Shown here in pieces: positions 26,733 to 45,836 of a stretch of DNA of 64,000 bases; position 1 is the stretch's first letter; every line of letters begins with the position of its first letter. The stretch covers positions 14,476 through 78,475 of the forward strand of contig CAZKOL010000002.1 of the NCBI GenBank assembly GCA_964554375.1, written 5' to 3'. The notes under the pieces were generated by a model. The model was not told where the DNA came from, made no database searches, and was given only the letters and a program-made list of their open reading frames with translations. Source of the stretch: an uncultured Dehalococcoidales bacterium. GTDB taxonomy: Bacteria; Chloroflexota; Dehalococcoidia; GIF9; UBA5629. Made by a program: the position numbers and the translations under genes.

Positions 26733-26757
26733 ATTATACATTATTTGTATAATTTGT
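26733..26757. promoter_or_regulatory. Palindromic element ATTATACA-N5-TGTATAAT(TTGT), copy 1
   Basis: In the dsrA/GRE divergent intergenic region; 24/25 identical to 45812-45836. Confidence 0.7.
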
Positions 26758-26815
26758 AAACTGATATAATTAGGCTGGATATTTCATTTTGGAAGGTCCG
26801 AGATTATAATTTGAA

Positions 26816-29518
26816 GTGGCAATTAAGATGATAGAGGTTAATCGTTCTTTGGCTGAAACTGGTTCTGCCATGACAGTATCGAATAGTTCGTTGGAAGCAT
26901 TGCCGCGGTTGCAGAAGTTGCGCGAGGATATTCTCATCTCACCCTATCACGTCTGTACGCAGAAAGCTTCACTGCTTACCGCTTATTTTAGCAGAAATAC
27001 AAACAAAGACCGGTGGGATAAGCTGTTGTCGTCAATCCAATATCGCTTTTACCGTAAGGGCCTGGAAAAGTCGGCTAAATCCATACCTCAAAAGAGGTGG
27101 CAGGCAGCCCTCAATAACAAGCTAAATTCAATGCTGTTAAAGAGGCGCAATGTTTCCACAAGTGATTCTGTCCTCCAGTATGCCGGGGCATTCAAATACA
27201 TACTTGAAAATATGAAATTGAAGGTATATGACGGTGAGCTGATAGCGGGCAATCCGTCTGCCTGGCGGGTAGGCGCCCCCATCCATCCCGACCTGGGCGG
27301 CCTGCTCATGCTGCCGGAGATAAGGGGTATATCCAGGCGCAGGCAAAATCCCATGGCCATTGAGCCGGCTCAACTTAAAGAACTGGAGCAGGAGATTTTC
27401 CCATTCTGGTTTAATCGTTCAGTGCTGGCGCTGACACCTCTTTTGAGCAACGACCCCGACCTCTTTAATTCGATGCTGGAGGGCAGGTACTTTATACTGA
27501 CGCAGTTCTCAGGAATTTCGCATGTTACACCGGATCATCCGGCCGTGCTCAGGCTGGGCTTCAACGGTATAGCGCAGGAGATACGGGACAAATTGGAGGA
27601 AGCAAAGACGGAGTTAGAAGTATACGTTGCGGACGGGTCTGAAGACCCGTCCCTACACGTAGGGGCGGACCTTAAGGTCCGCCCGGATGCAGATCGGGTG
27701 AATAACCCGTCTGCACAAATCACTGAAAAAATCGCCTTCTACGAGGCGGCTCTGGTCTGCGCTGAGGCTGCCGCCGATTACGGTAAGCGATGGAGCAAAT
27801 TCCTTGAGCAGGAGGCTATTAGATCCAGTGATGAAGTGCGAAAACAGGAGTTGATGCGGCTGTCGGAGGTATTTAACCGCGTGCCTGCGGAGCCGGCGGA
27901 GACTTTTTATGAGGCCTTGCAGTGCGTTTTTATCACGCACGTCATGCTGCACTACGAGAACTTTCAGCACGGCATCTCCTTCGGGCGCATGGACCAGTAC
28001 CTTTATCCTTACTATAAACGCGATATCGAATCCGGCAGGTTGACCCGCGGGCAGGCTGCCGAACTGATGGGCTGTTTTATTGCCAAAGCGGGCGAACTGC
28101 TGCCTCTTTTCTTTGACCGCGCCACCGAGTATTTCAGCGGCCTGTCTTCGGCCTCGGGCATAACGCTGGGGGGACGTGTAGCCGATGGCAGCGACGGCGT
28201 GAACGGACTATCTTATCTATTCCTGCAGGCTTATGACCAGGTGAGGCTCAGGCAGCCAAACTTTCATGTCAGGGTTAATAAAGATACTCCGGTCGAATTC
28301 ATGGATCTCTGTTGCGAGGTGCTCAAGAAGGGCGGCGGACTGCCGGCCTTCTTCAATGACGATGAGATACCATCAGCTCTGGAAAAATCAGGCATTGACA
28401 GGCAGGATGCTGAGGACTATTCCATAGTTGGTTGCGTGGAATGGGGAGTACCGGGGAAAAGCTTCCCTGCAGCCGGTGCGATTTTCCTGAATATGCCCAT
28501 GGCTTTGCACCTGGCCTTACATAATGGAGAATATAGCGGCGTGCAATTCGGGCCGCGCACGGGTGAAATAAACCAGCTCAATAACATGGAAACCATTGCA
28601 TCTGCTTTCAGAGTACAGCTTGAGAATATGATAATGCGTGCCACCTTTGGGAACAATGCAATCGAGCAAACCCACGCCGCTCATCGCCCCACGCCATTCC
28701 TGTCCAGCGTAGTGGATGGCTGTTTGGATAAGGGCATGGAGGTCAATGCCGGTGGCGCAAAGTACAATTCCACGGGCTGCCAGTGCATAGGCCTGGCCGA
28801 TACAGTGGATGCCCTGACAGCCATCGAACAAATCGTATTTAAAGAAGGCAGGCTATCTTTGGCGGAACTGGTCAGTGCTGTGGATGCTAATTTTACAGGT
28901 TATGCTGAGTTACAGGCGATTATTTTGAATCGAATACCTAAATATGGCGAGAATGAGGAAAGGCCCAACTATTACGCCCGCATGGTATCCGCTATTTACA
29001 CCGGGCTGGTAACACGATGCGACAACCCGCGCGGAGGTAAATACTACCCCGGGTTCTGGTCCATGACCACGCACCAGGGCTTCGGTGCGCGCACAGGCGC
29101 CCTGCCGGGCGGCCGCCTCTCCGGACTTCCTCTGGCCAATGGCATCTCGCCCTGCAATGGACGTGACAGGAACGGCCCGACGGCTTCGATGTCTTCGGCA
29201 GCCTGTATAGATAATAACCTGGTCGCCAACGGCTATGCGCTCAACGAGAAGCTTGACCTGGGAATGATCAAAGACCCTTCGCGCAATCGCCTGGTGGAAG
29301 CGTTGATTCTCGGTTTCTTCGCCAGCGGTGGAATGCAGGTGCAGTTCAACGTCGTTGATCCTGCCATTCTCATCGATGCAAAGGAGCACCCAGGCCAGTA
29401 TGTGGGGCTGGTTGTGCGTGTTTCCGGGTACTCGGCGTATTTCAATGACCTGACAGAATCGATGAAGGCCGAGCTGATACAGCGCACAGCGCACGATCTC
29501 AATTCGTGCTCGTGTTAG
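26816..29518 (+). CDS. Glycyl radical enzyme (PFL2/eliminase type), substrate unknown
   Basis: SFGRMDQYLYPYY, GCVE active-site loop, C-terminal LVVRVSGYSAYF glycyl radical motif; start uncertain. Confidence 0.92.
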   Translation: MAIKMIEVNRSLAETGSAMTVSNSSLEALPRLQKLREDILISPYHVCTQKASLLTAYFSRNTNKDRWDKLLSSIQYRFYRKGLEKSAKSIPQKRWQAALNNKLNSMLLKRRNVSTSDSVLQYAGAFKYILENMKLKVYDGELIAGNPSAWRVGAPIHPDLGGLLMLPEIRGISRRRQNPMAIEPAQLKELEQEIFPFWFNRSVLALTPLLSNDPDLFNSMLEGRYFILTQFSGISHVTPDHPAVLRLGFNGIAQEIRDKLEEAKTELEVYVADGSEDPSLHVGADLKVRPDADRVNNPSAQITEKIAFYEAALVCAEAAADYGKRWSKFLEQEAIRSSDEVRKQELMRLSEVFNRVPAEPAETFYEALQCVFITHVMLHYENFQHGISFGRMDQYLYPYYKRDIESGRLTRGQAAELMGCFIAKAGELLPLFFDRATEYFSGLSSASGITLGGRVADGSDGVNGLSYLFLQAYDQVRLRQPNFHVRVNKDTPVEFMDLCCEVLKKGGGLPAFFNDDEIPSALEKSGIDRQDAEDYSIVGCVEWGVPGKSFPAAGAIFLNMPMALHLALHNGEYSGVQFGPRTGEINQLNNMETIASAFRVQLENMIMRATFGNNAIEQTHAAHRPTPFLSSVVDGCLDKGMEVNAGGAKYNSTGCQCIGLADTVDALTAIEQIVFKEGRLSLAELVSAVDANFTGYAELQAIILNRIPKYGENEERPNYYARMVSAIYTGLVTRCDNPRGGKYYPGFWSMTTHQGFGARTGALPGGRLSGLPLANGISPCNGRDRNGPTASMSSAACIDNNLVANGYALNEKLDLGMIKDPSRNRLVEALILGFFASGGMQVQFNVVDPAILIDAKEHPGQYVGLVVRVSGYSAYFNDLTESMKAELIQRTAHDLNSCSC
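27626..27716. repeat. Cluster of three GTAG-type REP-like palindromes inside the GRE coding frame
   Basis: Minus-strand GTAGGGACGGGTCTTCAGACCCGTCC, plus-strand GTAGGGGCGGACCTTAAGGTCCGCCC, and a degenerate third hairpin GCAGATCGGGTGAATAACCCGTCTGC. Confidence 0.7.
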
Positions 29519-29582
29519 GGCGCCATACATGGCGCAGCAGCCATAGACTATTAGCATATTCGCCGATAATTGCAGAACACAC

Positions 29583-30410
29583 ATGCAGCAACTTGAGATT
29601 ATTGCCTTCGTGACCTCACTGGTGTCCCTGCAGATCGCAGTGGTTTTGTATATATGGGGTTTTATTTCCGCCACGTTGGGCAAGAGGCCGTCTGACAATA
29701 ATGCGTCGCGCTTCGCCATGCCTGTATTGTTACTGTCCTGGCTTGCACTCACAATTACGTTGATCGCTCATGCTATCCAGGCCGGGCATATCCCCGCCAC
29801 CGATATGTTCGAATTTTCCATGTCATTCGGCTGGGGCATACTGACGGTTATATTGGTTTTCAGGTGGTGGCACAAGAACGATATGATCAGCGCGGCGGGA
29901 GCGCTGGTGACCCTTGCCATGCTTGTTTATGCATTCACCCTGCCTGTCCAGCACCAGCCGTTGCCACCGGCGCTGAGCCAGACCTGGCTGCTTAATCTTC
30001 ATGTATCCTGCGCCATCATCGCCTATGGTTTATTTGCGCTCGGATTCGTTTGTGGTGTCCTCTATCTCACCAGGCGAAGGTTTGCCGCTCCCATTGTGCC
30101 CGCCCCTCAAATCCTCGATAGGCTGGGGTACCGCTCGGCATTAGCCGGCTTCTGCTTCATGACAATCGTTATCGTGGTTGGATCGGCCTGGGCTGAAATC
30201 GCCTGGGGCAGCTACTGGTCATGGGACCCCAAGGAGACCGCCGCGCTTGTGACATGGCTCATTTATGGAGGCTACCTGATCATGAGGCTGGCGCTTAAGT
30301 GGAGGGACAGCCCCAGCGCATGGTTCCTGGTCATCGGTTTCCTGGCCGTGCTGGTCACATTCTTCGGCAATTACTTTTTCGGCGGTCTGCACAGCTACGC
30401 TGCAACATGA
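29583..30410 (+). CDS. ccsA: Cytochrome c biogenesis protein CcsA/ResC (system II)
   Basis: WGSYWSWDPKET WWD motif, LHV and GLHSY His motifs. Confidence 0.92.
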   Translation: MQQLEIIAFVTSLVSLQIAVVLYIWGFISATLGKRPSDNNASRFAMPVLLLSWLALTITLIAHAIQAGHIPATDMFEFSMSFGWGILTVILVFRWWHKNDMISAAGALVTLAMLVYAFTLPVQHQPLPPALSQTWLLNLHVSCAIIAYGLFALGFVCGVLYLTRRRFAAPIVPAPQILDRLGYRSALAGFCFMTIVIVVGSAWAEIAWGSYWSWDPKETAALVTWLIYGGYLIMRLALKWRDSPSAWFLVIGFLAVLVTFFGNYFFGGLHSYAAT

Positions 30411-30467
30411 AAGCCCGCATGTAACCGGCAAACAGATTTCCCCGCAAACATATATATTGCTACGTCT

Positions 30468-30509
30468 CTATTCCACTGGCTACCTGGGTATCAGATCGTC
30501 TATCTCTGC
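30468..30509 (-). repeat. Degenerate copy of the 3' end of the R-M gene
   Basis: Translates AEIDDLIPR*PVE*, versus the R-M C-terminus AKIDELIPGWPVE* at 31672-31713. Confidence 0.65.
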
Positions 30510-30698
30510 TACTAACTCAAGCTGGCCCAACTTGTATGTCGGGCATTTCGCCGCTCAAGAGATGTCAGGCATTTGCGCATCGCTGGAATCGTTAGGCTTA
30601 GGCAAGGCTGTCCCGCAATTGCTGCAAAAGTTACTCTCCTCTTCAAGCCCGCGATTGGGACATTTTATTTTTATGGTTTACCCCTTTGGTGGTTGGGC

Positions 30699-31655
30699 TT
30701 ACACCTTTAGGAAATCATCCATCTTTTTAGTATTGAGGGCATGGGAAGGCGAAAGTTTTAGTATCTTGGCTATTATGAACTCAGTGAACCTTATGAAAGA
30801 AATCACATCATCATATACTGAGTCATACTCAGAAGAATGCTTGGCACTATTTTTCGGGTCGACTTCGGGAAAACTCCCAAAGTGGACGAGCCTATTTCTG
30901 ATTTTTATCCACTTCTCAATTTGCCTTCTATTCTCCTCTGTTATATTGTCCTTTATTTCGGACTTTACAAAAAGGAAAGCTACTTTATCAGACGAGTGTA
31001 TTCGCCTTAACCTGTCTTCTGGAAGCCATTCATGATTAAGAACCGCAAATAAATGCTCCCATATTATCCAGCAAAGAATAAAGGCTATATCCGGAGAACG
31101 ACTACGGAAAGCTTGTTGTGCTAAAAATAACAGATATCCCCTCTGGTATTTTTGTTTCCACTCTTCAGTCCCAATCAATTCATATATCTGATTAAGGCAT
31201 TTTTCGAAACCAATGTTGTAGCCGCTCAAAGGGTCGGTGGGGTCTATAAGTCGTTTCTCGTAAGGAATGGAGGCCCCAAGCACTCCCCCAGAGGGATAAA
31301 GCCGCGGGTCTGCTATTATTACCTTGCCGGTATCGTCATCAATTGCGTTATCGACCGCAAAGACATCACGCCTAGTAAAAATGGAGAGGAGGAGCAGGAT
31401 GTCACTCAGGGCAGTCTCGCTACTGTAAGCCCAGGCGAGAGCTGCCTCTTGTTCGTGTTCAGGGATTTCCACATATGCAGTTACGGCATGTTTTCCCGTA
31501 TTGGCATGAATCTCAAACTCTGAGTAAGATGTAATTAAGTGTTGCAGGCTGGTTATTCTATTCTGATAGTCATCTACCCTGGTAAACTGATATCCAAAGA
31601 TGGTCAAGTCAGGACAGTTACGAGAAAATTCTAGGTTGTAAACTTCTTTTCTCAT
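30699..31655 (-). CDS. Hypothetical protein with HEPN-type RxxxxH motif (ApeA-like)
   Basis: W..WEHL followed by RNRLVH; AT-rich; directly downstream of the R-M gene. Confidence 0.55.
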   Translation of the reverse strand: MRKEVYNLEFSRNCPDLTIFGYQFTRVDDYQNRITSLQHLITSYSEFEIHANTGKHAVTAYVEIPEHEQEAALAWAYSSETALSDILLLLSIFTRRDVFAVDNAIDDDTGKVIIADPRLYPSGGVLGASIPYEKRLIDPTDPLSGYNIGFEKCLNQIYELIGTEEWKQKYQRGYLLFLAQQAFRSRSPDIAFILCWIIWEHLFAVLNHEWLPEDRLRRIHSSDKVAFLFVKSEIKDNITEENRRQIEKWIKIRNRLVHFGSFPEVDPKNSAKHSSEYDSVYDDVISFIRFTEFIIAKILKLSPSHALNTKKMDDFLKV

Positions 31656-31671
31656 CCCACGAACTACTCCC

Positions 31672-34600
31672 TCACTCCACCGGCCACCCAGGAATGAGTT
31701 CGTCTATCTTTGCCATCCGCCGTATGGTCTCTTTAAGAGCGACCGCCATTTTCTGGTAATGGGTCAGCTCGTCATAGGTCAGTGTCCTACCTTTGCGGTC
31801 TTTGAGCCACTTCTGGCAGACCTGGTAGCCGCCGATATGGAAATTCCAGACTTCAGGCGGCACGCCCTCGAAATATTGTTCCTTATTGATGTACACTCTA
31901 CCAACTCTTTCATCATAGCTTACCTTATCCACTATATTTGAGCCTGCCACAGGGTACTTGGTGATAAGGTTATTCAGTAGGGGTGATTCCATGAGGTGAA
32001 GAGATACCAACTCGGTTCCTTTCGCTGCCAGCGACTTGAATAGGGCTCTATCGGAAGTCAGTGGCAGTCGCGGGAAGTCCATCTTGAGGAACTCGGCATA
32101 GCGGCTGCGGTAAGTGGGCGAGTGGAAGATGGCATAAGCGTAATTGAAGATATCCTCCGGACCAAAGGTCTGCTCAATGTCGCCTTTGCCATCTTCAACG
32201 AATTTTAGACCCAGCTTCTCCGAAACGGCCTTGATGAACTCAGTGTTCAGGTTGGGACGGCGGTGACCAGCCTCAAGCTGCATCTCGCCTGCGGTTGGGT
32301 AGAGGTAGAGGGGGACAAGGCTAGTAATATCATAGGCGGACAATGCTTTGTGTCCAATAACGAAGCGTGTGGCGAGAGTATCCCATTGGTCACGAGTCTG
32401 ACGCGTGATTAGTAACGACAGGTTCTTACCAGCAAGCATATGACGCATGACTTGTTTTACGGTGCGCCAGACTAAAGAGTCATGGTAGAAGATAAGCCTA
32501 GTATCGAAAGGGCGGTATAATACGGGCTTGATAAACTGCTCAAGGTTTTTTTCTTGTCTGATAAGTTGCCTTGCATGACTGACATTCCAACCCAGTTTTT
32601 GAGGTATTGCTAGTTGTTCACACACAACCGTGTCTGCTTCCTGTGAATCGCGAAACAGTGAAGCTCTTTCAATCAGCGGTTCCGCTTCAAAGTCAATTAC
32701 GATATCATCTCTAGCTGTAGTCATGCCAACGCCATTGACAGGGAAAATGTCAGTTATTTTCCAGCCCCTCATGTATTCATCTAATTCAGCTTCATCTCTC
32801 GGCATGAACAAATAAAATGGACTGGAGGGCTTAAGCTCCTTCCAATCAGACCTGTTGATATCTGTTTCAGCCAGGGCTTGATACTTGCCTTCCCGTATTC
32901 CCCATAGTTCGTCATAGTGAACTGTTGCAGGGCTATTCTTGCCCCGTTCTTTAACAAAAATACCAATAGCTACCCCTTGCTGGATATCGAATACATTCTC
33001 GTCCTTGCCGCCATCCGGGGCAACCTCTTTTTTCTTGGCGTTGCCGTGCAGGTTCAGGATGTATATATCGGTGAAAGTGCTCATCAGTGACTGCCGCAGG
33101 CCTCGGAAGGTGGGGTTATCCAGGTAGGAGTGGTTGGTAATGAAACCCAGGATACCCTGTCCCGTGCGCTCGATGCGCCATTGGCCAAATGCCAGGAATT
33201 TAACGTAGTCGTCCTGCAACCACTTGGGGTTCTTTTCACCCAGTGGCTTGCCATCAATGGTCTTGTATCGCTCCACCAGTCGTCTCGCCCAATCACCCTT
33301 GTTTGCCGAATGCCCGGAATAAGGCGGATTGCCCAGCACCACCATTATCGGCTCATCCTTCTTCACTCTGGCGGCCGCATTGGCTTCCTCGCTTATCCAC
33401 CGGGCAAATAGCGTATCTGAGTGTTTAATCGCCTCGTCCAGCGTATTGGTCAGGTATATACCCAGCCGCTGCTCACTCTCGAACTCGTAGCCCGTCTCCT
33501 GAAGCAAGAGGCCCAGCTTGAGATGGGCAATCGCGTATGGGGGCATTAGCAGTTCAAAGCCGAAGATGCGGGGTAAGAGCTTTTCCTCTACGTAGTTGTT
33601 CCACATGCCCTGCTGGCCTTTACCAGCCGTAGCTTGATAAATCTCGTTTATTATCTTGTAGAGGAAGGTTGCCGTGCCCACCGCCGGGTCCAGGATAAGC
33701 GTCTTCTCGTCCGCCAGCCCCTGCGGCTTATTGAAGCTGGTTTTTAAAAGGTAATCTATAGAGCGCACGATGTAGCTGACCACAGGCTCGGGCGTATAGT
33801 AAACGCCGCGCATCTCCCGTATCTTCGGATCGTAGGCTTTGAGGAAGGTCTCGTAGAAATGCACCACAGGGTCTTCTTTGCCGGAACGACGTCCGAAGTC
33901 TTTAAGTAGGCTATATATATCGGCTTGAGCCAGTAGCTGAGATAAATCGTCAACAAGCCATGCTATGCGGTCATCAAGGTCAGGTCCCGCAATCTGGTTA
34001 AAAAGCTTGCGCAGGAAAGGATTGGTTTTCGGCAGGAGATAAGCGGCATTCCGTCGGGTAAAATCCTTATTTTCAGGAGCAGTACAGCGGGCGGCAAACA
34101 AGCCGTAGGCAATGGTCTGCGCATACATATCGGCAAAATACTCGATCGACAGGTCAGGGATGAGGTTTTCTCGGAAAGCGGCAAGCTGGCTGTGCAGGCT
34201 GCCCTTTTCCGGTTCCTTCTCAAAAGCTTTAATGATGAGATTGCGAATCAGGTGTGCCTGCCGGGCCATACGCTGGGCCAATTCCCTGGGTGTACCCACG
34301 CCTGTGGCTTTATGTGCGAGAAAACTATCCAGAAGCTCGGCTACCGCCTGAATGCCGTCTTTATCCCGCTTAATACGGCCTTCTTTTGCGGCTGTACCGA
34401 GGCGCGCTGAAAGCCGGCGCTCGCCATTCACGTACCAGCGAAACTCAAGGTAATCGGTCAGGACAAGGTTACTGAGTGAATCGCGATAGCGTTTTAGCTG
34501 TTCCGATTTCTCCTCTTCATCGAGGTTCTTGTCGATATCCTTGGCCTCAATATAGCCAATGGTTGCTGAGCCTTTTCTGACGATGAAGTCAGGGGCGCCG

Positions 34601-34764
34601 CACTCGATATGTTTCGGCTCGTTGGTGGCGGTGATTCCCGTATCCAGGCGCTCAACCAGTGTTTCCAGCGCCGAACGGTGGGTGTGCTCGGTGGCATCAC
34701 CCTGCGCCAGCTTTTTCTCAATGGCGTTTATATAATGCTGAAATGGCTTCAAATCTTCCGCCAA
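31672..34764 (-). CDS. Single-polypeptide restriction-modification enzyme (nuclease, N6-adenine MTase, type ISP-like specificity domain)
   Basis: GAPDF...IEAK PD-(D/E)xK, GVYYTP, ILDPAVGT, GNPPY, YRPFD, IGGYQV.QKWLKDRK. Confidence 0.88.
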   Translation of the reverse strand: MAEDLKPFQHYINAIEKKLAQGDATEHTHRSALETLVERLDTGITATNEPKHIECGAPDFIVRKGSATIGYIEAKDIDKNLDEEEKSEQLKRYRDSLSNLVLTDYLEFRWYVNGERRLSARLGTAAKEGRIKRDKDGIQAVAELLDSFLAHKATGVGTPRELAQRMARQAHLIRNLIIKAFEKEPEKGSLHSQLAAFRENLIPDLSIEYFADMYAQTIAYGLFAARCTAPENKDFTRRNAAYLLPKTNPFLRKLFNQIAGPDLDDRIAWLVDDLSQLLAQADIYSLLKDFGRRSGKEDPVVHFYETFLKAYDPKIREMRGVYYTPEPVVSYIVRSIDYLLKTSFNKPQGLADEKTLILDPAVGTATFLYKIINEIYQATAGKGQQGMWNNYVEEKLLPRIFGFELLMPPYAIAHLKLGLLLQETGYEFESEQRLGIYLTNTLDEAIKHSDTLFARWISEEANAAARVKKDEPIMVVLGNPPYSGHSANKGDWARRLVERYKTIDGKPLGEKNPKWLQDDYVKFLAFGQWRIERTGQGILGFITNHSYLDNPTFRGLRQSLMSTFTDIYILNLHGNAKKKEVAPDGGKDENVFDIQQGVAIGIFVKERGKNSPATVHYDELWGIREGKYQALAETDINRSDWKELKPSSPFYLFMPRDEAELDEYMRGWKITDIFPVNGVGMTTARDDIVIDFEAEPLIERASLFRDSQEADTVVCEQLAIPQKLGWNVSHARQLIRQEKNLEQFIKPVLYRPFDTRLIFYHDSLVWRTVKQVMRHMLAGKNLSLLITRQTRDQWDTLATRFVIGHKALSAYDITSLVPLYLYPTAGEMQLEAGHRRPNLNTEFIKAVSEKLGLKFVEDGKGDIEQTFGPEDIFNYAYAIFHSPTYRSRYAEFLKMDFPRLPLTSDRALFKSLAAKGTELVSLHLMESPLLNNLITKYPVAGSNIVDKVSYDERVGRVYINKEQYFEGVPPEVWNFHIGGYQVCQKWLKDRKGRTLTYDELTHYQKMAVALKETIRRMAKIDELIPGWPVE

Positions 34765-35000: not shown

Positions 35001-35015
35001 TAGCACAGTTGATTC

Positions 35016-37654: not shown

Positions 37655-38809
37655 TTATTGTTTCCCCTGTCTGACACCCAGGACTACCTTGAACAGCAGA
37701 GTCAATACCAGCCCGCCCATTGCCCAGACGCCCATTGTTATGAGTATTTCAATCAGGGTAGGCGTGTACTCTGATATCTCGCCTAAAGGCGAGGGGATGA
37801 ATCCCGGTATGACGAGCCCGAGGCCCTTGTCGATCCAGATGGCGATGAAAACAGCCGCGCAGGCCAGTGCCAGGGTCCCGTGGTTTTTGCGCGACGAAGG
37901 TATGACCAGCATAACAATGGCTGTGCAGGCCAACAGGATGGAGGCCCATGTCCAGGGTACGAGGTTGTAATGGTTGTCCAATCCGAACAGCAGGTACTGG
38001 AAATGGGCCATAGCCTCGGGCGCCTGGCTATAAAAAACGGTAAAGACTTCCAGAATCAGGAAGAACACGGTTATGATGATGGCGTAGGCTACGATTTTAG
38101 CCACACTATCCAGGGCTTGGTTGCCCGGGTCGAAGCCGCCCCATTTTTTCATGGCCAGCGCCAGCAATATTAAAAGGGCGGGGCCGGAGGCGAAGGCTGA
38201 GGCCAGGAAACGCGGCGCCAGTAAAGCGGTCAGCCAGAAGAGCCGTGCCGCCAGGCCCGCATAAATGAATGCGGTGACCGTATGAATGCTGATCGCCCAT
38301 ACGATAGATACGATGGCCAGGGGTTTTAGCCAGGCCGGGGGCTCCACCTCTTTATATTCGGCATCCAGCGCCACCCAGCCCATGACAATGTTGAGCAGCA
38401 GGTAAACCGTGAGCACGACCACGTCCCAGAAAATAATTGAGCCGGGTGAGGGATAAAGGATAATATTAAAGACCCTGGCGGGCTGTCCAAGATCCACCAG
38501 GATGAAGGTAATTGCCACCAGGCAGGCCGCTACGGCCATGAACTCGCCCAGGATCAGTATGCGGCGGAACTCCCTAGTATTGTGCAGGTAATAGGGGATA
38601 ACCAGCATGACGGCGGAGGCGGCCACGCCGACGAAGAACGTGAAATTGGCGATGTACAGGCCCCAGGAAATGTCCCTGCTCAAGCCGGTTACAGCCAGGC
38701 CGATGTCCCACTGTTGAAGATAGGCGGCCAGGCCGGCGGCCATAAATAGGAGCAGGCCGCTTATCAGCAGCCAGTATTTCTTCCCGCCCTTCAGTATGTT
38801 TTCAATCAA
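37655..38809 (-). CDS. dsrP: DsrP (NrfD-family membrane subunit)
   Basis: WGLYIANFTFFVGVAASA, VDLGQP.R, SIHTVTAF, PRFLASAF. Confidence 0.92.
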   Translation of the reverse strand: MIENILKGGKKYWLLISGLLLFMAAGLAAYLQQWDIGLAVTGLSRDISWGLYIANFTFFVGVAASAVMLVIPYYLHNTREFRRILILGEFMAVAACLVAITFILVDLGQPARVFNIILYPSPGSIIFWDVVVLTVYLLLNIVMGWVALDAEYKEVEPPAWLKPLAIVSIVWAISIHTVTAFIYAGLAARLFWLTALLAPRFLASAFASGPALLILLALAMKKWGGFDPGNQALDSVAKIVAYAIIITVFFLILEVFTVFYSQAPEAMAHFQYLLFGLDNHYNLVPWTWASILLACTAIVMLVIPSSRKNHGTLALACAAVFIAIWIDKGLGLVIPGFIPSPLGEISEYTPTLIEILITMGVWAMGGLVLTLLFKVVLGVRQGKQ

Positions 38810-38817
38810 TGTAGATC

Positions 38818-39591
38818 CTACAGCAAATAGTAGACCTGCGGCCGGGTACCCAGTCCGTCCTTGCGACGCAGGTTGAATTGAGATGATATCAGCTTGTACA
38901 CTTCAGTGCCCGGTTTCAAGTATCCGAATGTCAGCGCGCCGCTGCTGCAAGCTTCAACGCAGGCAGGCTGCAGCCCTTCGGCCAGCCTTTCTTCGCAGAA
39001 ATTGCATTTTTCGACCACGCCTTTGGTGCGGGTTGGATAGCTATTCTCTATGGTCTTGATATAAGGGCGCGGATCGCGCCAGTTGAAGCTGCGGGAGCCG
39101 TAGGGACAGGCTGCCATGCAATAGCGGCAACCTATACAGCGATGGTAGTCCATCATGACAATTCCATCGTCCCGCTTCCATGTTGCCTGGGTGGGGCACA
39201 CCTTAACGCAGGGCGGATTGTCACAATGGTTACAAAGCACAAGCACCCTGCGGTCCTGCAGTGGTTCCGCCACCAAGCTGTCTTCCTGATCGGGGAAGGC
39301 CTGGTCGTAGCTGACGTCCCACAGCCACTTGATGTCCTCCTTGCGGTTGCCTATGTCCGGGACATTGTGCACCCGGTGGCAGGCAGCTATGCAGTCTGCG
39401 CAACCATCTGCGGACTTGCAGGCATTGAGGTTGACTGCCATGACAAGGCGCCCGTCGGAAGCCGGGCCGTTGAGAGCCCTGGCGGCGGAAGGCTTTGAGA
39501 TAAGGTCGAGGGCAGGTTTGGCAGCCAGGGCAAGCAGGCCGAGCGCTGTGAGTTTGAGGAAAGAACGGCGGTCGATATTCATATTGCTCAT
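38818..39591 (-). CDS. dsrO: DsrO periplasmic Fe-S protein with Tat signal
   Basis: DRRSFLK Tat motif; CNHCDNPPCVKVCP, CIGCRYCMAACP, CNFC. Confidence 0.92.
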   Translation of the reverse strand: MSNMNIDRRSFLKLTALGLLALAAKPALDLISKPSAARALNGPASDGRLVMAVNLNACKSADGCADCIAACHRVHNVPDIGNRKEDIKWLWDVSYDQAFPDQEDSLVAEPLQDRRVLVLCNHCDNPPCVKVCPTQATWKRDDGIVMMDYHRCIGCRYCMAACPYGSRSFNWRDPRPYIKTIENSYPTRTKGVVEKCNFCEERLAEGLQPACVEACSSGALTFGYLKPGTEVYKLISSQFNLRRKDGLGTRPQVYYLL

Positions 39592-39989
39592 TGCGTTCCC
39601 TGCAGCGGCGCATTCACCGGTGGCACATTATGACAGTCCCAGCAGTTTGGGGCTGTGCCCGTATAGTTATGGCAGCGGTCGCAGAAATCAGCCTTGCTGG
39701 GGTGGCATTTGAGGCAGGTTCCTGTGAGGTTGATATCGAATGTACGGTTATCGCTGGATATGTATAGACTATTGCCCTGCCTCACAGACTGGTCTCGCCA
39801 CTGCTGCACAAGCTGCATATGGTACTCCCTCATATATTGCGCCGATTCTACACACTGATTCTCGCTGGCCGGCAATACAGGATCTGGACGATAATCGGCT
39901 TTACCGCTGGCCGCCATGTACCAGACGGGGAAGCTGGCCAGGCAGAGGAAAATGGCCAGGCCGCCGATTATCTTGCCTTTATCATACAC
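39588..39989 (-). CDS. dsrJ: DsrJ triheme cytochrome c
   Basis: CV...MR..HM plus three CxxCH (CLKCH, CDRCH, CWDCH). Confidence 0.92.
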   Translation of the reverse strand: MYDKGKIIGGLAIFLCLASFPVWYMAASGKADYRPDPVLPASENQCVESAQYMREYHMQLVQQWRDQSVRQGNSLYISSDNRTFDINLTGTCLKCHPSKADFCDRCHNYTGTAPNCWDCHNVPPVNAPLQGTQ

Positions 39990-41616
39990 CGTGTTGCCCG
40001 CCTTCTGTAGGCGTATTTGCAGTCAGGGGCTCGCCTCTCAAGTCTGTCTCCCTCTTTTTCTCTCCTTGCATGACGAGGGCGTTGCCGAGCAGTTCATGCA
40101 CTCCCGCCGTCTCAACTCCAGGCGCCCAGTATTCCAGTAGAGGAGGGAATGAAGCCTTGTCGATAGCACAGATGCAGGCCAGCACGTTCACCCCATGCTT
40201 TTCCTGGACGTACTTCACAGCGTTGGCACGAGGGTAACCGCCGCGCAGCCGCACCTCCATATTCTCGTCGGGACCGAGTCCGGCCCCGCTTCCGCAGCAG
40301 AATGTGCGCTCCCTGATGGTGTTCTCAGGCATCTCATAGAAGTGGTTACATGTATTATTTATTATATAGCGGGGCTCCTCTAACAGTCCCATAGCCCTGG
40401 CCGGGTTGCAGGAATCGTGGTAGGTCACTTTCCATTTATCGTTCCGCCCGGGGTCGAGCTTGAGCTTGCCGCTGTGGATAAGGTCTGCCGTAAACTCGCA
40501 GATGTGTACCATTTTGGTCGACCTGGCGTTGTCAAATCTGGCGCCGGTTACAGGCGAGACCGGCTCCTCGAGAAATGAGGGAGGACCGTTGAAAGTGTCC
40601 ATAAACTGGTGGATAACGCGCCACATGTGCCCGCATTCGCCGCCCAGCACCCATTTAACCTTTAACCTCTCGGCTTCAGCGTATATTTTGGCGTTCAGGC
40701 TCTTTGCCAGTTCGGCCGAGTGGAAAAAACCGAAGTTCCCGCTCTCCGAGGCATAGGTGCTGAAAGTATAATCAAGTCCGATCTCGTGGAAGAGCATGAG
40801 GTAACCCATCAGCGTGTACCAGGCGGGGCTGGCAAAGAAATCGGCGGAAGGCGTGACAAAAAGGATCTCGGCGCCCTTCTTGTTGATGGGAACATCTACA
40901 TCAATACCTGTAATGGCCTTGATATCATCTTGCGCTGATTCCAGGCTCTGTTTCATAGCGTGCGGCGGAATGCCCAGGTGGTTGCCGGTGCGGAATGAGT
41001 TGGAAGCCGGGCTGACCACCCATTCGGAAGTGCAGCCCACCAGGTTCAGCAACTCGCGTCCCAGCATGGTGATCTCGCAGGTGTCAATGCCGTAGGGACA
41101 GAAGACGGAGCACCGCCTGCATTCCGAGCACTGGTAGAAGTAGTAATACCACTCCTTCACTACCTTCTCGTCCAGTGACCTGGCGCCGCCCAGCTTTCCC
41201 CAGAGCCTGCCTCCAACGGTAAAATACCGCCGATATACCGACCGCAGCAATTCAGCCCTCATCACCGGCATGTTCTTGGGATCACCGGATCCAATGAAAT
41301 AATGGCACTTGTCCGAGCAGGCGCCGCAACGCACACATATATCAAGATACAATTTCAAGGAACGGTATTTACCCAGGCGATCTTTCATACCTTCTAAAAT
41401 AATACGTTTGAAATCCGGCGGTAACTTCCAGTCAGCGTCCTGCGGGTTCCACCGGCGCGGGTTGGGCAGGTGTAAACTCTCCTGGCTCTTGAGAGGTGCG
41501 GCATAGCAGTAGGAACCTTTGGTAAACTCGACGGACGGGTCCATCCAGTCCCGATGGTGAGGATGGTAGTCGATGCCGGCCATCTCTTCAGGCCTGATTA
41601 TCTTATCTGCCATCAT
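39982..41616 (-). CDS. dsrK: DsrK (HdrD-like Fe-S/CCG subunit)
   Basis: CVRCGACSDKC, CSECRRCSVFCP, GECGH, YHDSCN, CCGSG, CAID. Confidence 0.94.
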   Translation of the reverse strand: MMADKIIRPEEMAGIDYHPHHRDWMDPSVEFTKGSYCYAAPLKSQESLHLPNPRRWNPQDADWKLPPDFKRIILEGMKDRLGKYRSLKLYLDICVRCGACSDKCHYFIGSGDPKNMPVMRAELLRSVYRRYFTVGGRLWGKLGGARSLDEKVVKEWYYYFYQCSECRRCSVFCPYGIDTCEITMLGRELLNLVGCTSEWVVSPASNSFRTGNHLGIPPHAMKQSLESAQDDIKAITGIDVDVPINKKGAEILFVTPSADFFASPAWYTLMGYLMLFHEIGLDYTFSTYASESGNFGFFHSAELAKSLNAKIYAEAERLKVKWVLGGECGHMWRVIHQFMDTFNGPPSFLEEPVSPVTGARFDNARSTKMVHICEFTADLIHSGKLKLDPGRNDKWKVTYHDSCNPARAMGLLEEPRYIINNTCNHFYEMPENTIRERTFCCGSGAGLGPDENMEVRLRGGYPRANAVKYVQEKHGVNVLACICAIDKASFPPLLEYWAPGVETAGVHELLGNALVMQGEKKRETDLRGEPLTANTPTEGGQHGV

Positions 41617-42623
41617 TGCTCCACAGGCGCATTATTCGTTTCAACGGGGATACCGGACTTAATCATGGGCTGCCTGAATTCGTCCTCGTATTCAGCATAG
41701 GTATGCACCCTGACAGGCCTGTTCCAGGGGTTTATATGCCTCACCCTGCGGCTGTCGTTCTTGAGGTTGCGGGTGGGACTGAGCAGTATGCCGGCAGCGT
41801 GCATCATCTTGCTGAAAGGGAAGTAGGCTATTAAAGTGCAGCCAAGCAGCAGGTGGATATAGAAAGGAAGGCCGATGCCGGCAGGTACCACAGGCCTGAA
41901 GGTGATTACACTTATAGCCAGTTCTTTGACTGCAACCAGATCGACCTTGAATACGGAGCGCATGAGGATGCCGGAGATCACCACCGCCAGTATAAGGGAC
42001 AGCGCCAGGTAGTCAGAGGCCAGAGAGATATACCTGACCTGTGCGGATACCAGTCGCCTGATAAACAGGTACGTTAGCGCAATAAGTATGATGAAATCCG
42101 TGATAAAAAGGGCCGGCAGGGCCAGCTGTAACACACCATCGATTGTAGAAATCAATATTGATGGCAGAAATACCGGCTCGGTGAAAAAGCGCAGGTGACG
42201 TATGAGGATTATGAGCAGTGACCAGTGGAAGGCCAGACCACCCAACCAGAGCCAGCGGCTGCCTCCGTAGATCAGCCTGTGCTCACCTGCCTGCTGCATG
42301 CTGCTATTGCGGAAGAGCGAACGGAATAAGAATATCTCCAGCAACATGCGCCATGCCACAGCCCAGTTATCAGCGGGGTTTTCGATTTTATCGCTTTTTA
42401 TCCAGTCGAGGGACAATTCCTGCCCGCACGTGGTCGGAATGTTGAACGGGACCGGCGATTGCGCCCAGCGTATCACCCGATATATGAACCCGCTAATGAA
42501 AGCTGCTATTGCGATGTAGGGAAGCACTACGGCGAAGATAAACTGCGATGAGGGAACGACAAAACTGATAGTCGCCAGTGAGACTACGGCGGCAACTGCA
42601 AACAGGGGCCAGACTATTTTCAT
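41613..42623 (-). CDS. dsrM: DsrM (NarI-like cytochrome b)
   Basis: PVPF.IPTTCGQ, FRSLFRN, FHW...RHLR, PFSK.MH, SPTRN. Confidence 0.94.
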   Translation of the reverse strand: MKIVWPLFAVAAVVSLATISFVVPSSQFIFAVVLPYIAIAAFISGFIYRVIRWAQSPVPFNIPTTCGQELSLDWIKSDKIENPADNWAVAWRMLLEIFLFRSLFRNSSMQQAGEHRLIYGGSRWLWLGGLAFHWSLLIILIRHLRFFTEPVFLPSILISTIDGVLQLALPALFITDFIILIALTYLFIRRLVSAQVRYISLASDYLALSLILAVVISGILMRSVFKVDLVAVKELAISVITFRPVVPAGIGLPFYIHLLLGCTLIAYFPFSKMMHAAGILLSPTRNLKNDSRRVRHINPWNRPVRVHTYAEYEDEFRQPMIKSGIPVETNNAPVEQ

Positions 42624-42630
42624 AACGCTT

Positions 42631-43134
42631 TCATACCTTGCGTATGCTCATTATCCTGGCCTTGAAATCATCGGCCTTTGCTGCTTCCTTAACCGAGAGA
42701 TCCCGGATTTGGCTCTTCATTTTTGTATAAAGCTCGGTTGAAGTATATGCAAGGAGGTCTATTTTTATTTCAAGCTCATTCAGTTCGTCCTGCAGCCCAT
42801 ATGTTATGGACCCGCCAATTACCTGGCCTCTTAAAACAGTTTTCAAGTCGAGCATAAACGCAACTGCCTGTGAGGGTGTGAAATCCTGCACCGCCCTTAT
42901 TCTAATAATTTTTTCCAGGCAGTTGTGCAATGTACCGGGGTCATCTCCCCTTATCAGCGCGTCCAGCAGTTGTCCGGCGCTGGTCGAAATAGCGTATCCT
43001 ACGGGGTTGCTGAACCTGTCGCCACCGCCCAGCAGGAAATTACCCCCTTCAGGCGTATAAGAATCAAATATTCCGCGAAGCCATATCTGTAATATGGCCT
43101 CTTTTTTCTGCAGCAGAAGATGTTCCAGGTTCAT
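42631..43134 (-). CDS. dsrT: DsrT (RsbRD-N-like)
   Basis: DRFSNPVGY and IRIRAVQDFTPSQAV motifs; directly before dsrM. Confidence 0.88.
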   Translation of the reverse strand: MNLEHLLLQKKEAILQIWLRGIFDSYTPEGGNFLLGGGDRFSNPVGYAISTSAGQLLDALIRGDDPGTLHNCLEKIIRIRAVQDFTPSQAVAFMLDLKTVLRGQVIGGSITYGLQDELNELEIKIDLLAYTSTELYTKMKSQIRDLSVKEAAKADDFKARIMSIRKV

Positions 43135-43232
43135 TTATAATTTTGCCTTTTTAAATAGTATTTCGAGTTCGTTTCCCTTAATAAGGCAGTATATTTTATT
43201 ATCGCTGCCGATACAAGGTTAGACCTGGACGA

Positions 43233-43997
43233 TCATGCCACTTCCTCAGCGATATCAGCCGTGATTCTCTCGCGCAGGGCTATAAATACATTGTCAGTCA
43301 GACGCCGCGGGTAGCTCAGGTTCACAGGATAAATGCTTTTTACTGCGCCGGGGCCGGATTTCATGACTACAACTCTTTCAGCAAGGTAAACTGCCTCTTC
43401 CACGCTGTGCGTGACGAAAACAATGGTTTTTCTGTCCACATTCCAGATGCCGAGCAGATCTTTCTGCATAAGGTAGCGTGTCTGAGCATCGAGGGAACCG
43501 AAAGGCTCGTCCATCAGCAGCACTTCCGGATCATTGGCCAGAGCCCGTGCGATAGCCACCCGCTGCTTCATACCGCCGGAAAGCTCGGACGGGTACTTGT
43601 GGCCGCTGCCTGAAAGTCCAACCAGTTCGATGCAGCGTTCGGCGGTCCGCAGGCGTTCTGCCAGAGGTACTTTTAGCACCTCCGGGCCGAATACCACGTT
43701 GCCCGTCACGTCCCTCCAGGGGAACAGCGCGAAATCCTGGAAGACCAGTCCTCTATCCGGACCAGGCGCTATCACCGGCTTCCCGTCGATGTAGATAGCC
43801 CCCGAGCTGGCATGTTCAAGGCCGGCAACGAGTTTAAGTAGTGTGGTCTTGCCGCAGCCGGAGGATCCTACCAGGCAAACGAATTCACCGTCGCCTATTG
43901 ACAGGTTGAAATCGCGCAGGGCTACGGTGGAGGCGCCGCCCCTTTTTTCCATGAAGGTCTTGCTGACGCCGTCGATGATAAGCTTCCGACCGCTCAT
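43233..43997 (-). CDS. NitT/TauT family ABC transporter ATP-binding protein
   Basis: GSSGCGKT, VFQDFALFPW, LSGGMKQR, MDEPFGSLD. Confidence 0.92.
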   Translation of the reverse strand: MSGRKLIIDGVSKTFMEKRGGASTVALRDFNLSIGDGEFVCLVGSSGCGKTTLLKLVAGLEHASSGAIYIDGKPVIAPGPDRGLVFQDFALFPWRDVTGNVVFGPEVLKVPLAERLRTAERCIELVGLSGSGHKYPSELSGGMKQRVAIARALANDPEVLLMDEPFGSLDAQTRYLMQKDLLGIWNVDRKTIVFVTHSVEEAVYLAERVVVMKSGPGAVKSIYPVNLSYPRRLTDNVFIALRERITADIAEEVA

Positions 43998-44722
43998 GCT
44001 GCCTTCCAGAAAAGAATTTTATCCTCGAGCTTTTTGAGGCCGATAAACATAAGGTAACCTGCGATGCCGATCATAAGCATGCCTGCCACGGTCTTGGATG
44101 CCTCCATAGTGGAGTAATAATACATTATCATGTAACCGAGGCCGGAGTTGGAGCCGGTCAATTCAGCCGCTACAAGGCACATCCATCCTATTCCGATGCC
44201 GATTCGCAGGCCCGCCATGATCGAAGGGGCAGCCGATGGTACGCCAACCTTAATCAGTATCTGCCAGGGGCCTGCGCCAAGTGTTTTGGCCACCTCTATC
44301 AGCTTGGGCGGAGTGTTCTCCATGCCAAGTACTGTATTGAGCAGGATGGGGAAAAAGGCGCCCAGCCAGATGAGAAAGACCGCCGGCTTAAAGCCAAGTC
44401 CAAACCATAGCATGGACAGGGGTATCCATGCCAGGGGCGGGATGGGGCGCAATATCTCAATGACGGGCTCAAGCAGGTCACGCGCATTTCGCCACCAGCC
44501 GATGATGATGCCGAGAAAAACACCGGTGACGGCCGCCAGGGCAAAACCGGCGAGCACCCTCCACAGGCTGATAAGTGTGTTGCCCATCAGCTCTCCCGCC
44601 CATGCCATCCCGGGCGGGCCGGGCGCGGCCAGCAGCTGACCCAGTGCGACGATGACGGAAACGGGAGTGGGGAAAAGCTGAGGCAGATTGGACAGGAGGG
44701 CTGCACCCTCCCAGATCAGCAA
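43994..44722 (-). CDS. NitT/TauT family ABC permease (SsuC/TauC-like)
   Basis: LRPIPPLAWIP, EVAKTLGA, LVAAEL...GLGY; start uncertain. Confidence 0.9.
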   Translation of the reverse strand: MLIWEGAALLSNLPQLFPTPVSVIVALGQLLAAPGPPGMAWAGELMGNTLISLWRVLAGFALAAVTGVFLGIIIGWWRNARDLLEPVIEILRPIPPLAWIPLSMLWFGLGFKPAVFLIWLGAFFPILLNTVLGMENTPPKLIEVAKTLGAGPWQILIKVGVPSAAPSIMAGLRIGIGIGWMCLVAAELTGSNSGLGYMIMYYYSTMEASKTVAGMLMIGIAGYLMFIGLKKLEDKILFWKAA

Positions 44723-44762
44723 AAAGAGGACGATCGAAATAAGCCGTAAAGGACGCGTGTCT

Positions 44763-45761
44763 TCACCTCTGGAGGTATTTGGTATCCACCACCGTATCGA
44801 CGAACGTGTCTAAATCCGGTACATCACTGGCTGTTATGATGGGCTTGATAGCCCCTTTTTCACCGAGGCTGATGATCTCACTGACGAACCTCTTAATATC
44901 GTCCCTGCTAAGAGAATAGGTGTACTTAACACGCCCGAAGGCGTTGTCAATGATGGCGGGATCCAGCCTGGTCCATTTGCCGGCGATGGCTTTGGCCTCG
45001 GCTGGATTAGCCTCTATAAAATCAATAGCCCTGCGGTGTGCGCGTATTACGGACGCAACGGTGCTCTCATGGGAACGGACGAAATCACCTCCGGTTACGA
45101 TCACGCAACAAGGATGACCGGGCCAGATGTCCTTTGATTCTACCAGTACTTTGCCGTACCCGCCCACCACGGACCTGGCCACAAAGGGCTCCCAGACAAA
45201 GTACCCGTTAATGCGTCCCGTCTGCAGAGACTGCGGCATGTCCGGGGGTTTGACCGTGCCGGGGAAAAGCTCGATGTCGTTATAACCTAAATTATTGCCT
45301 GCCAGCAGCATCCCGAACATCACATATTGGATAGATCCGGGTGCTGGGGTGGCTATCTTTTTCGATTTCAGTTCGGCAACGCTATTGATATCCATGCCGG
45401 TTACCAGGCCTGATCCTTCCAGGTTGACGCCTGATACGATGGAAAGCGGGATCTTGCGAGCCGCCGCCAGCATGGCCGGCGCCACACCGACATAGCCCAT
45501 ATCTATCTGGTTGGCTGCCAGCGCATCCATCTCTGCAGGACCGGCATCAAATGGTCCCACCACTTCCACATTCAGCCCCTCCTCAAGAAAAAAACCCCTG
45601 TCCTGCGCCACAAAAAACGGCAGATGGTGAAGGTCGCCCAGAAGGTAACCGATACGTACCGTCGAAGGCGCCATAGGTGCGCACCCTGACAGGCTGCCAA
45701 TCGAGGTGAACACCAGCGACGCCAGGATAAAACTTGTCAGAAGCTTAAATATAAGGTTCAT
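44763..45761 (-). CDS. NitT/TauT family substrate-binding lipoprotein (SsuA/TauA/NrtA-like)
   Basis: Lipobox LSGC, VRIGYL...HHLP, WEPF, WPGHPCC. Confidence 0.88.
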   Translation of the reverse strand: MNLIFKLLTSFILASLVFTSIGSLSGCAPMAPSTVRIGYLLGDLHHLPFFVAQDRGFFLEEGLNVEVVGPFDAGPAEMDALAANQIDMGYVGVAPAMLAAARKIPLSIVSGVNLEGSGLVTGMDINSVAELKSKKIATPAPGSIQYVMFGMLLAGNNLGYNDIELFPGTVKPPDMPQSLQTGRINGYFVWEPFVARSVVGGYGKVLVESKDIWPGHPCCVIVTGGDFVRSHESTVASVIRAHRRAIDFIEANPAEAKAIAGKWTRLDPAIIDNAFGRVKYTYSLSRDDIKRFVSEIISLGEKGAIKPIITASDVPDLDTFVDTVVDTKYLQR

Positions 45762-45811
45762 CTAATACCCCTGATTCAGCAAATTATACCAGCAACAAGG
45801 CGGTTGATTAA

Positions 45812-45836
45812 ATTATACAATATTTGTATAATTTGT
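45812..45836. promoter_or_regulatory. Palindromic element ATTATACA-N5-TGTATAAT(TTGT), copy 2
   Basis: In the ABC/larA-like divergent intergenic region; 24/25 identical to 26733-26757. Confidence 0.7.

Follow-up and report, generated by a model that had tools for sequence, protein, structure and literature searches.

A conserved 25-bp palindrome with promoter anatomy ties dsr genes to sulfonate-type transport and larA genes in an uncultured Dehalococcoidales bacterium

Operators that lie over two divergent promoters, so that one protein can control both directions, are known from Escherichia coli, where BirA acts at bioO between bioA and bioBFCD, and from Tn10, where TetR acts at tetO between tetA and tetR. 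LysR-type regulators use T-N11-A boxes, such as the ATAC-N7-GTAT of the BenM/CatR group, and in Desulfovibrio the genes of sulfate and sulfite reduction are regulated by Rex and HcpR, with consensus sites of the TGTGA/TCACA type. Promoters can also be bidirectional by themselves: the available text of Warman et al. (bioRxiv 10.1101/2020.01.31.928960) describes pairs created by −10 symmetry, with overlapping or shared −10 elements and starts 7–25 bp apart, 18 bp being the commonest distance, and the available part of PMC12825309 likewise reports such promoters, as well as the action of AcrR at the acrR/acrAB bidirectional promoter. Here we analyse a palindrome that occurs twice in a 64,000-nucleotide stretch (the window) of contig CAZKOL010000002.1, from an uncultured Dehalococcoidales bacterium: once between dsrA and a glycyl radical enzyme (GRE) gene followed by ccsB (site 1), and once between the binding-protein gene of an ABC transporter and larA (site 2). 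The Dehalococcoidia that carry dsrAB are uncultured, and the source of their sulfite is an open question.

The two sites, in window coordinates, are as follows.

26733 to 26753, no strand: site 1 palindrome, ATTATACA-TTATT-TGTATAAT, between dsrA and GRE/ccsB
26733 to 26738, minus strand: TATAAT hexamer of site 1, toward dsrA
26748 to 26753, plus strand: TATAAT hexamer of site 1, toward GRE/ccsB
45812 to 45832, no strand: site 2 palindrome, ATTATACA-ATATT-TGTATAAT, between the binding-protein gene and larA

The 25-mers at 26733–26757 and 45812–45836 were found where the initial annotation had placed them, and their single difference is at position 9, inside the N5 spacer. Both sites contain an 8-N5-8 dyad that can be extended to 10-N5-10 and that includes both −10 hexamers; the longer form is perfect at site 2, where 45810–45834 is a perfect 25-bp palindrome, and has one mismatch of 20 at site 1. 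Two exact matches to ATTATACA-N5-TGTATAAT are present in the window, and three when up to three mismatches are allowed, against 0.29 expected (0 of 100 shuffles gave three). The whole genome (2,156,956 bases in 176 contigs, 93.7% complete, 53.8% G+C) also holds only these two exact copies and none of a backwards-read control pattern, with 0.0002 exact copies expected per genome from a first-order Markov estimate. The next-best genome match to the 10-N5-10 form has 4 of 20 mismatches, and there are no weaker members. The motif is therefore not common at unrelated promoters; commonness there was one of the outcomes that the initial annotation had named as speaking against its proposal. Two matches with two mismatches each, C6:8172 and C39:1962, were dropped as motif copies because their spacers are G+C-rich or unrelated; one lies about 70 nt after an open reading frame (ORF) and about 250 nt before the next, and the other overlaps an ORF start.

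The consensus 29-mers of the two sites are identical at 28 of 29 positions, and the hexamers are 9 bp apart at both loci and across four genera. Nowhere else in the genome, in which TATAAT pairs and TGNTATAAT boxes as such are common, were two exact TATAAT hexamers seen with this spacing. The palindrome is an ordinary type of element, a promoter or operator palindrome, in a new place, and it is very likely functional and common to both loci.

Related loci were gathered through their proteins (anchored on GRE, LarA or dsrA), independently of the motif. Site 1 was present upstream of all 11 GRE orthologues in the genus (73–85% identity), exactly in 10 of them and with one mismatch in G012, and it also precedes dsrA in G001, G006 and G011. 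In the alignment, about 35 bp stay invariant amid diverged intergenic DNA, namely the palindrome with TTGTAAAC at one end and TTAA at the opposite end. Site 2 was present in 14 of the 15 LarA-anchored loci (the exception ends 131 nt upstream of the gene, its site being on another contig) as well as in G041/G181 and in the genera g9, g29 and g34, and its palindrome and flanks are likewise invariant within diverged intergenic DNA (21 aligned loci). By phylogenetic footprinting, one of the checks that the initial annotation had proposed, both sites are thus kept across relatives.

When the 17 genomes of the genus were scanned with the motif, 14 had exactly two copies and G011 (77% complete) had a single one; G003 and G014 had no copy, and neither a dsrA nor a LarA-like match was found in them. 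Across the order (202 genomes, up to one mismatch), the motif occurred in 22 genomes, all from one family, and the control pattern in one; the palindrome was present in 0 of the 125 genomes of the other four families. Matches with one mismatch in G023 (within an ORF), G175 and G200 were set aside, their contexts being unrelated to the two sites. Among 79 dsrA loci from public genomes, 11 have the palindrome some 120 nt before the gene, and all of these are of this lineage, their titles naming Dehalococcoidia or Chloroflexota; it is missing at the other 68, which include 10 further Chloroflexota. A scan of metagenomes returned at least 118 stretches, and in the 80 of these that were examined the motif lies beside dsrA in 12 and beside the binding protein or larA in 9, with no match to the neighbour proteins in 59, mostly AT-rich contigs.

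The palindrome is thus real, beyond chance, unique to the two intergenic regions and conserved in relatives, and the proposal that it ties together the four transcription units leaving these regions holds. That proposal had also leaned on a spacer and a flank shared by the two sites, which fared differently. The N5 spacer is not fixed, reading TTATT, ATATT, AGATT, AGAAT, GGATT or TTAAT across relatives. The flank, TTGT, is part of a minus-strand −35-like hexamer (TTTACA at site 1, TAGACA at site 2) located 16 bp from a TATAAT. What never varies in the protein-anchored alignments of both sites is the CA/TG beside the hexamers; the AA/TT extension of the dyad is kept at both sites, and the site 1 spacer reads AATA in 28 of 28 distinct contexts.

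All four palindrome halves contain an exact TATAAT, and the surrounding sequence holds the following promoter-like elements.

26755 to 26760, minus strand: −35-like hexamer TTTACA, 16 bp from the dsrA-facing TATAAT
45834 to 45839, minus strand: −35-like hexamer TAGACA (TATACA in some relatives), 16 bp from the binding-protein-facing TATAAT
45804 to 45809, plus strand: −35-like hexamer TTGATT, 17 bp from the larA-facing TATAAT
26762 to 26770, plus strand: GRE-side canonical extended −10 box TGATATAAT, 17 bp downstream of the plus-strand hexamer of the palindrome
26674 to 26682, minus strand: dsrA-proximal −10-like box TAGTATTAT (TGGTATTAT in most relatives), 47–51 nt from the palindrome
45783 to 45791, minus strand: canonical extended −10 box TGGTATAAT, 22 nt before the start codon of the binding-protein gene
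45885 to 45893, plus strand: conserved TGnTATCAT/TATTAT box in the larA leader

In three of the four directions a −35-like hexamer is therefore found at 16–17 bp, inside the 16–18 bp range of sigma-70-type promoters. At the TTTACA hexamer, TTTGTAAAC is invariant in 12 of 12 aligned site 1 loci, and at TTGATT, TTGATTAA is invariant in all 21 aligned site 2 loci. The initial annotation had argued that back-to-back −10 boxes could explain the dyad but neither the spacer nor the flank; the halves are indeed perfect TATAAT hexamers, but the flank is also promoter anatomy and the spacer is not constant. Since the flanking −35-like hexamers are asymmetric as well as conserved, a symmetric protein site would not explain them, and a promoter would need them. 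In addition, the ccsB start codon lies 14–15 nt past the palindrome in four contexts without GRE (G011, L156, L158 and L224), so that the far hexamer is the only plausible −10 for ccsB, with a very short leader implied. The −35 hexamers and the ccsB geometry support the idea that the hexamers act as promoters. Because they are 9 bp apart, the divergent starts are predicted to be about 34 bp apart, and two polymerase sites at the palindrome would overlap almost completely.

Not all of the conserved sequence is accounted for in this way. TGTATAAT was rejected as a canonical extended −10 (TGnTATAAT) since its TG abuts the hexamer without the n, and a scan with TGNTATAAT missed both sites; the CA/TG pair is therefore not accounted for by known polymerase contacts, and neither are the AA/TT extension and the identical geometry. 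Canonical boxes do occur nearby: TGnTATAAT is present on the GRE side in 9 of 12 aligned loci, ATTATA[CT]CA stands at 45783..45791 in most of the 21 aligned loci (it is clearly absent from G198), and TGNTATAAT occurs 117 times in the genome against 54 expected, a twofold excess. The same dyad was also seen in unrelated AT-rich metagenome contigs (L162, L177, L195, L202 and L228), directly after a consensus TTGACA and with the 16–17 bp geometry, and an inverted TATAAT within a promoter spacer may be a more general design.

Site 1 is always with dsrA and its opposite neighbour varies: in most genomes this is GRE plus ccsB, in G001, G011, G024 and three metagenome contigs it is ccsB alone, and in G006 the palindrome is intact without any divergent gene, the upstream gene being co-oriented with dsrA. 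In that genome homology stops about 20 nt beyond the palindrome, which places the rearrangement breakpoint outside it. This series of neighbours (GRE and ccsB, ccsB alone, or none) implies that GRE was inserted between the palindrome and ccsB. Site 2 is always with the binding-protein gene, in four genera (g1, g9, g29 and g34), with larA opposite in three of them; in G182 larA is missing and only a fragment of the binding-protein gene is present. The two sites are on different contigs in G006 and G009 and 12–19 kb apart elsewhere, each keeping its gene partner every time. In a sister lineage (L062, L063), site 1 reads TTTACA-AGTTATACAAGAAATGT-CATAAT, where a 1-nt insertion breaks the dyad and leaves the −35 and −10 elements 17 bp apart, and a sister-lineage genome with the broken site 1 retains a perfect site 2. 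DsrA itself is 85–93% identical in public contigs of Dehalococcoidia (Chloroflexota); the next-closest sequences, about 80% identical, are from Syntrophorhabdaceae and other Desulfobacterota, and several other Dehalococcoidia reach 71–79%, a pattern that would fit lateral acquisition of dsrAB by this lineage.

The sequence of the palindrome, its uniqueness, its conservation and its promoter anatomy are direct observations. To account for them we propose, as a reading that we hold to have an even chance, that the two sites are overlapping divergent core promoters that double as the operator of a putative dimeric regulator. The palindrome would be the central part of a compact module of divergent promoters, of which the genome has exactly two, with back-to-back TATAAT hexamers 9 bp apart, each lying within the spacer of the opposite promoter. 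Polymerase would start leftward into dsrABDNC at site 1 and into the binding protein, the ABC genes and dsrTMKJOP at site 2, and rightward into GRE-ccsB at site 1 and into larA and the genes for a 2-oxopropyl-CoM reductase-like (2-KPCC-like) enzyme and a dehydrogenase at site 2, occupying one direction at a time and never both. With both −10 elements inside the dyad, binding of a symmetric dimeric protein would turn off or switch the four units jointly, and this putative regulator would be the reason why the two sites are kept nearly identical. We infer that the hexamers fire and that such a regulator binds. The binding of a symmetric regulator is suggested by three observations: positions that polymerase does not read are conserved (CA/TG, AA/TT and AATA), the design is unique in the genome, and the palindrome is intact in G006.

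Several points weigh against the proposed double role of promoter and operator. Site 1 of the sister lineage evolves in the manner of a promoter rather than an operator. The same dyad beside a consensus TTGACA in unrelated AT-rich contigs means that polymerase alone may select such an arrangement, and the canonical TGnTATAAT boxes near the palindrome on all four sides could be the real promoters. The GRE direction is without a −35, ATAGTT/ACAGTT matching at no more than 1 of 6 positions. The case of G006 is one genome only, the N5 variation is compatible with any model, and the 28 site 1 contexts were collected by motif, so that the invariance of the half-sites is partly built in and only positions outside the search pattern count. 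Finally, no fitting regulator was found among the candidates tried (LysR, TetR, MerR/HTH_17, OmpR-type and the ORF at the DsrD position).

Some of these points would suit an explanation that involves polymerase only and no dedicated regulator, in which two strong housekeeping-sigma promoters stand back to back and the loci are alike through copying of the module or selection toward consensus. It can draw on the perfect TATAAT halves with conserved −35-like hexamers at 16–17 bp in three of four directions, on the short distance to ccsB in four contexts, on the −35 and −10 retained in the sister lineage while the dyad is broken, on the dyad beside TTGACA in unrelated contigs and on the lack of a fitting regulator among those tried; dsrAB are moreover expected to be very highly expressed genes. 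We regard it as rather unlikely, since polymerase does not contact the positions of the unvarying CA/TG, of the AA/TT extension or of the AATA spacer of site 1, the hexamers keep their 9-bp distance at both loci in four genera, G006 has an intact far half though no gene for it to drive, and the other consensus promoters of the genome are without this design.

An operator with no promoter function of its own is improbable. Here the flanking extended −10 boxes (26762-26770, 26674-26682, 45783-45791 and 45885-45893) would be the real promoters and the palindrome the site of a dimeric activator or repressor, its centre relative to the predicted starts being at about −34 and −76 for site 1 and at about −46 and −78 for site 2. 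The conservation of TGnTATAAT or TGnTATTAT boxes on all four sides, the twofold over-representation of TGNTATAAT in the genome and the palindrome's TG, which is out of extended −10 register, are in its favour. It leaves unexplained, however, the conserved asymmetric −35-like hexamers at the proper distance, and there is no room for another promoter before ccsB in G011, L156, L158 and L224; furthermore, the 47–51 nt between the palindrome and the dsrA-proximal box do not keep helical phasing, and the box positions differ between the two sites.

An element outside transcription (a repeat due to chance, a site of recombination or attachment on either side of the 19-kb segment, or a hairpin in RNA) has a very small probability: the 29-mers are direct repeats around a 19-kb gene block and the palindrome could fold as a weak A/U hairpin, but chance is excluded by the shuffles, the genome scan and the Markov estimate, no integrase or recombinase gene was seen in the window, the sites keep their gene partners whether on separate contigs (G006, G009) or 12–19 kb apart, the G006 breakpoint is outside the palindrome, and both sites are in promoter positions.

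The four transcription units that the palindrome joins are composed as follows.

25460 to 26629, minus strand: dsrA, with a NIR_SIR domain, first gene of the leftward unit from site 1
24374 to 25438, minus strand: dsrB, leftward unit of site 1
24160 to 24360, minus strand: small winged-helix ORF (66 aa) at the DsrD position, leftward unit of site 1
22665 to 24146, minus strand: dsrN-like amidase with CobB/CobQ domains, leftward unit of site 1
22282 to 22605, minus strand: dsrC, with a DsrC domain, leftward unit of site 1
26816 to 29518, plus strand: GRE of the PFL2/glycerol-dehydratase family, 900 aa
29583 to 30410, plus strand: CcsB-like cytochrome c assembly gene, after GRE
37057 to 45761, minus strand: leftward unit from site 2 as a whole
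44763 to 45761, minus strand: SsuA-family-like binding protein, adjoining site 2
43233 to 45761, minus strand: SsuA-like binding protein, permease and ATPase, leftward unit of site 2
42631 to 43134, minus strand: RsbRD_N protein at the dsrT position, leftward unit of site 2
37655 to 42623, minus strand: dsrM, K, J, O and P, leftward unit of site 2
37057 to 37602, minus strand: 181-aa membrane protein, leftward unit of site 2
45961 to 50052, plus strand: rightward unit from site 2 as a whole
45961 to 47415, plus strand: LarA-like protein, adjoining site 2
47702 to 49198, plus strand: 2-oxopropyl-CoM reductase-like (2-KPCC-like) oxidoreductase, 498 aa, downstream of larA
49225 to 50052, plus strand: short-chain dehydrogenase, rightward unit of site 2

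The gene labels of the initial annotation were borne out by domain and protein matches, apart from 'DsrD', which lacks sequence confirmation. The 498-aa oxidoreductase matches 2-oxopropyl-CoM reductase (1mo9) over its full length with an E value of 1e-126, against 1e-27 for the next oxidoreductases. With the LarA-like protein and the short-chain dehydrogenase (45961-50052), this full-length 2-KPCC homologue adjoins the SsuA-like ABC transporter (43233-45761), and the set resembles a pathway that would act on a coenzyme-M-type thioether or hydroxy-sulfonate in this sulfite-reducing member of the Dehalococcoidia. The LarA-cofactor genes (larB-like, larE-like and larC) are on the dsr contig too (window 6704-10070), and the larBEC region is also present in the motif-less G003 and G014. 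To the left of the window the same contig carries a complete cluster for siroheme and alternative heme (G000:C2:3671-14272), with hemA, C, D/cobA, B and L, a sirC-like gene, ahbC and ahbD.

The GRE probably starts at the TTG at 26849, which aligns with the ATG of its relatives. It scores below every equivalog cut-off, with isethionate lyase, sulfopropanediol dehydratase, CutC and HypD all far under, carries about 110 additional N-terminal residues and is without an adjacent activase gene. Its orthologues turned up in this genus only, invariably right behind the palindrome, and at least three paralogues are on other contigs of the genome. Between the two sites, the gene block is split by a type ISP restriction-modification island (~30399-37056), where the type ISP gene (31672-34764) has NYN, HEPN-like and AbiEi-like ORFs as neighbours. 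A contig of the RNA library X3 joins 30398 to 37057 with 198 other letters between and so bridges the region without the island, which related strains therefore lack.

Beyond the promoter–operator reading, the gene content allows a wider interpretation, which we offer tentatively and hold at somewhat less than an even chance. The two sites would form a two-operator regulon of a putative dimeric regulator that couples organosulfonate uptake and breakdown to the whole sulfite-respiration machinery. On the first side, a coenzyme-M-like or other organosulfonate would be handled by the SsuA-type ABC transporter, the LarA-like isomerase, the 2-oxopropyl-CoM-reductase-like enzyme, the dehydrogenase and the GRE; on the second side would stand dsrAB, the small ORF at the DsrD position, dsrNC, dsrTMKJOP and cytochrome c assembly. 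The operator would have arisen at the transporter/larA promoter, where it is found in four genera, and would later have been captured by the promoter of a laterally acquired dsrA, at which two genera have it in perfect form and a third in degenerate form, with the GRE then inserted behind it.

Each of the candidate regulators was considered in turn. DsrD, put forward by the initial annotation, is a poor candidate: the small ORF at 24160-24360 has no Pfam DsrD match at E≤1, and no DsrD chain was among its PDB sequence matches at E≤1. In the available text of PMC8794893, the DsrD of Desulfovibrio vulgaris binds DNA non-specifically and is an allosteric activator of DsrAB. A single-sequence model of the small ORF (pLDDT 70) has three helices and a short wing, and weakly resembles Z-alpha (TM ~0.7) and Lrp/AsnC winged helices, with Foldseek E≥0.01. 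A LysR-type regulator was discarded because PF00126 had 0 matches in G000 (93.7% complete), against matches in 13 of 14 control genomes. The TetR gene at 21082-21678 was dropped since it was not detected beside dsrC in G006 by a DNA search, which a diverged gene could escape, and the OmpR-type response regulator at 52898-53644 since it is not beside the larA operon in G181 or G198. A MerR/HTH_17 protein (G000:C2:13577-14272, minus strand) was likewise rejected, being present in 38 of 77 family genomes, the motif-less G014 included. Its gene adjoins the larA operon in G198 and heads the heme (ahbC/ahbD) operon in G000, and upstream of it there are TCTATAGA-type repeats instead of the palindrome. 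The C-terminal domain of this MerR/BldC-type helix-turn-helix protein (G000:C2:13577-14272; L147:5810-6460) weakly resembles the RsbRD_N of the protein at the dsrT position.

The rest of contig C2 carries heme and siroheme genes and, beyond a third TetR, no further transcription factor. The two TetR genes of the window (16147-16737 and 21082-21678) each lie beside a Na+/H+ exchanger gene (18447-19709 and 19861-21078), and these are probably local regulator–transporter pairs unrelated to the palindrome. A full-text literature search with both 8-mers gave no bacterial operator among the papers listed, one on the Dehalococcoides MarR gave nothing useful among its listings, and at the level of such listings, supplements excluded, nothing in print was found on dsr cis-regulation in Dehalococcoidia or on this sequence.

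Parts of the window are present in 15 metatranscriptome runs, as contigs, which carry no starts, strands or levels. No listed contig spans either intergenic region in the four runs compared with 26251-46250, and the low cover of 32254-36922 by RNA contigs is uninformative since the X3 contig skips that stretch (30398 joined to 37057). In the dsrA leader, most genomes of the genus have an inverted repeat, GCAGGC-N8-GCCTGC (26690-26712, in minus-strand RNA), that is absent from one subclade. Its helix is 78% paired, and one pair varies between G-U, A-U and G-C, as would fit a helix in the dsrA mRNA strand only. As a hairpin, which would put the dsrA start upstream, it was rejected: RNAalifold returned no consensus structure, and 69 of 500 shuffles reached the covariation score, which is not significant.

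A control element found only at the dsrAB promoter and at the promoter of the transporter, dsrMKJOP and 2-KPCC-like genes is sequence-level evidence for one working unit. It links dsrAB, dsrMKJOP, a sulfonate-type transporter, a 2-oxopropyl-CoM-reductase-like operon and a GRE in an uncultured sulfite reducer, and speaks for sulfite respiration that is fed by organosulfonates. The 25-bp palindrome provides a precise bait for the regulator and an example of a compact, highly conserved divergent promoter; if the proposed capture of the operator by the dsrA promoter is true, it would also be a traceable case of regulon growth.

Compared with the described systems, the palindrome resembles the Rex and HcpR sites in being palindromic and upstream of dissimilatory sulfur genes, but its sequence does not match their consensus and the phylum is a different one; literature listings brought up no comparable report for the dsr genes of Dehalococcoidia. 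Its inner part reads ATAC-N7-GTAT, as in LysR boxes, and some of the divergent genes around it are for sulfonate-type transport, although no LysR-type helix-turn-helix (PF00126) was found in the 93.7% complete genome. With the class described in the available text of Warman et al., it shares a pseudo-symmetric promoter, divergent transcription and the exclusion of one polymerase orientation by the other; judged by that text, it falls outside the class in that its hexamers are separate, 9 bp apart, and its predicted starts are about 34 bp apart. Unlike bioO, tetO and the AcrR site at acrR/acrAB, it has no adjoining cognate regulator gene, is used at two loci and is known from sequence only, but like them it is a single dyad site, placed in a short stretch between divergent genes and extending over the core elements of the two promoters.

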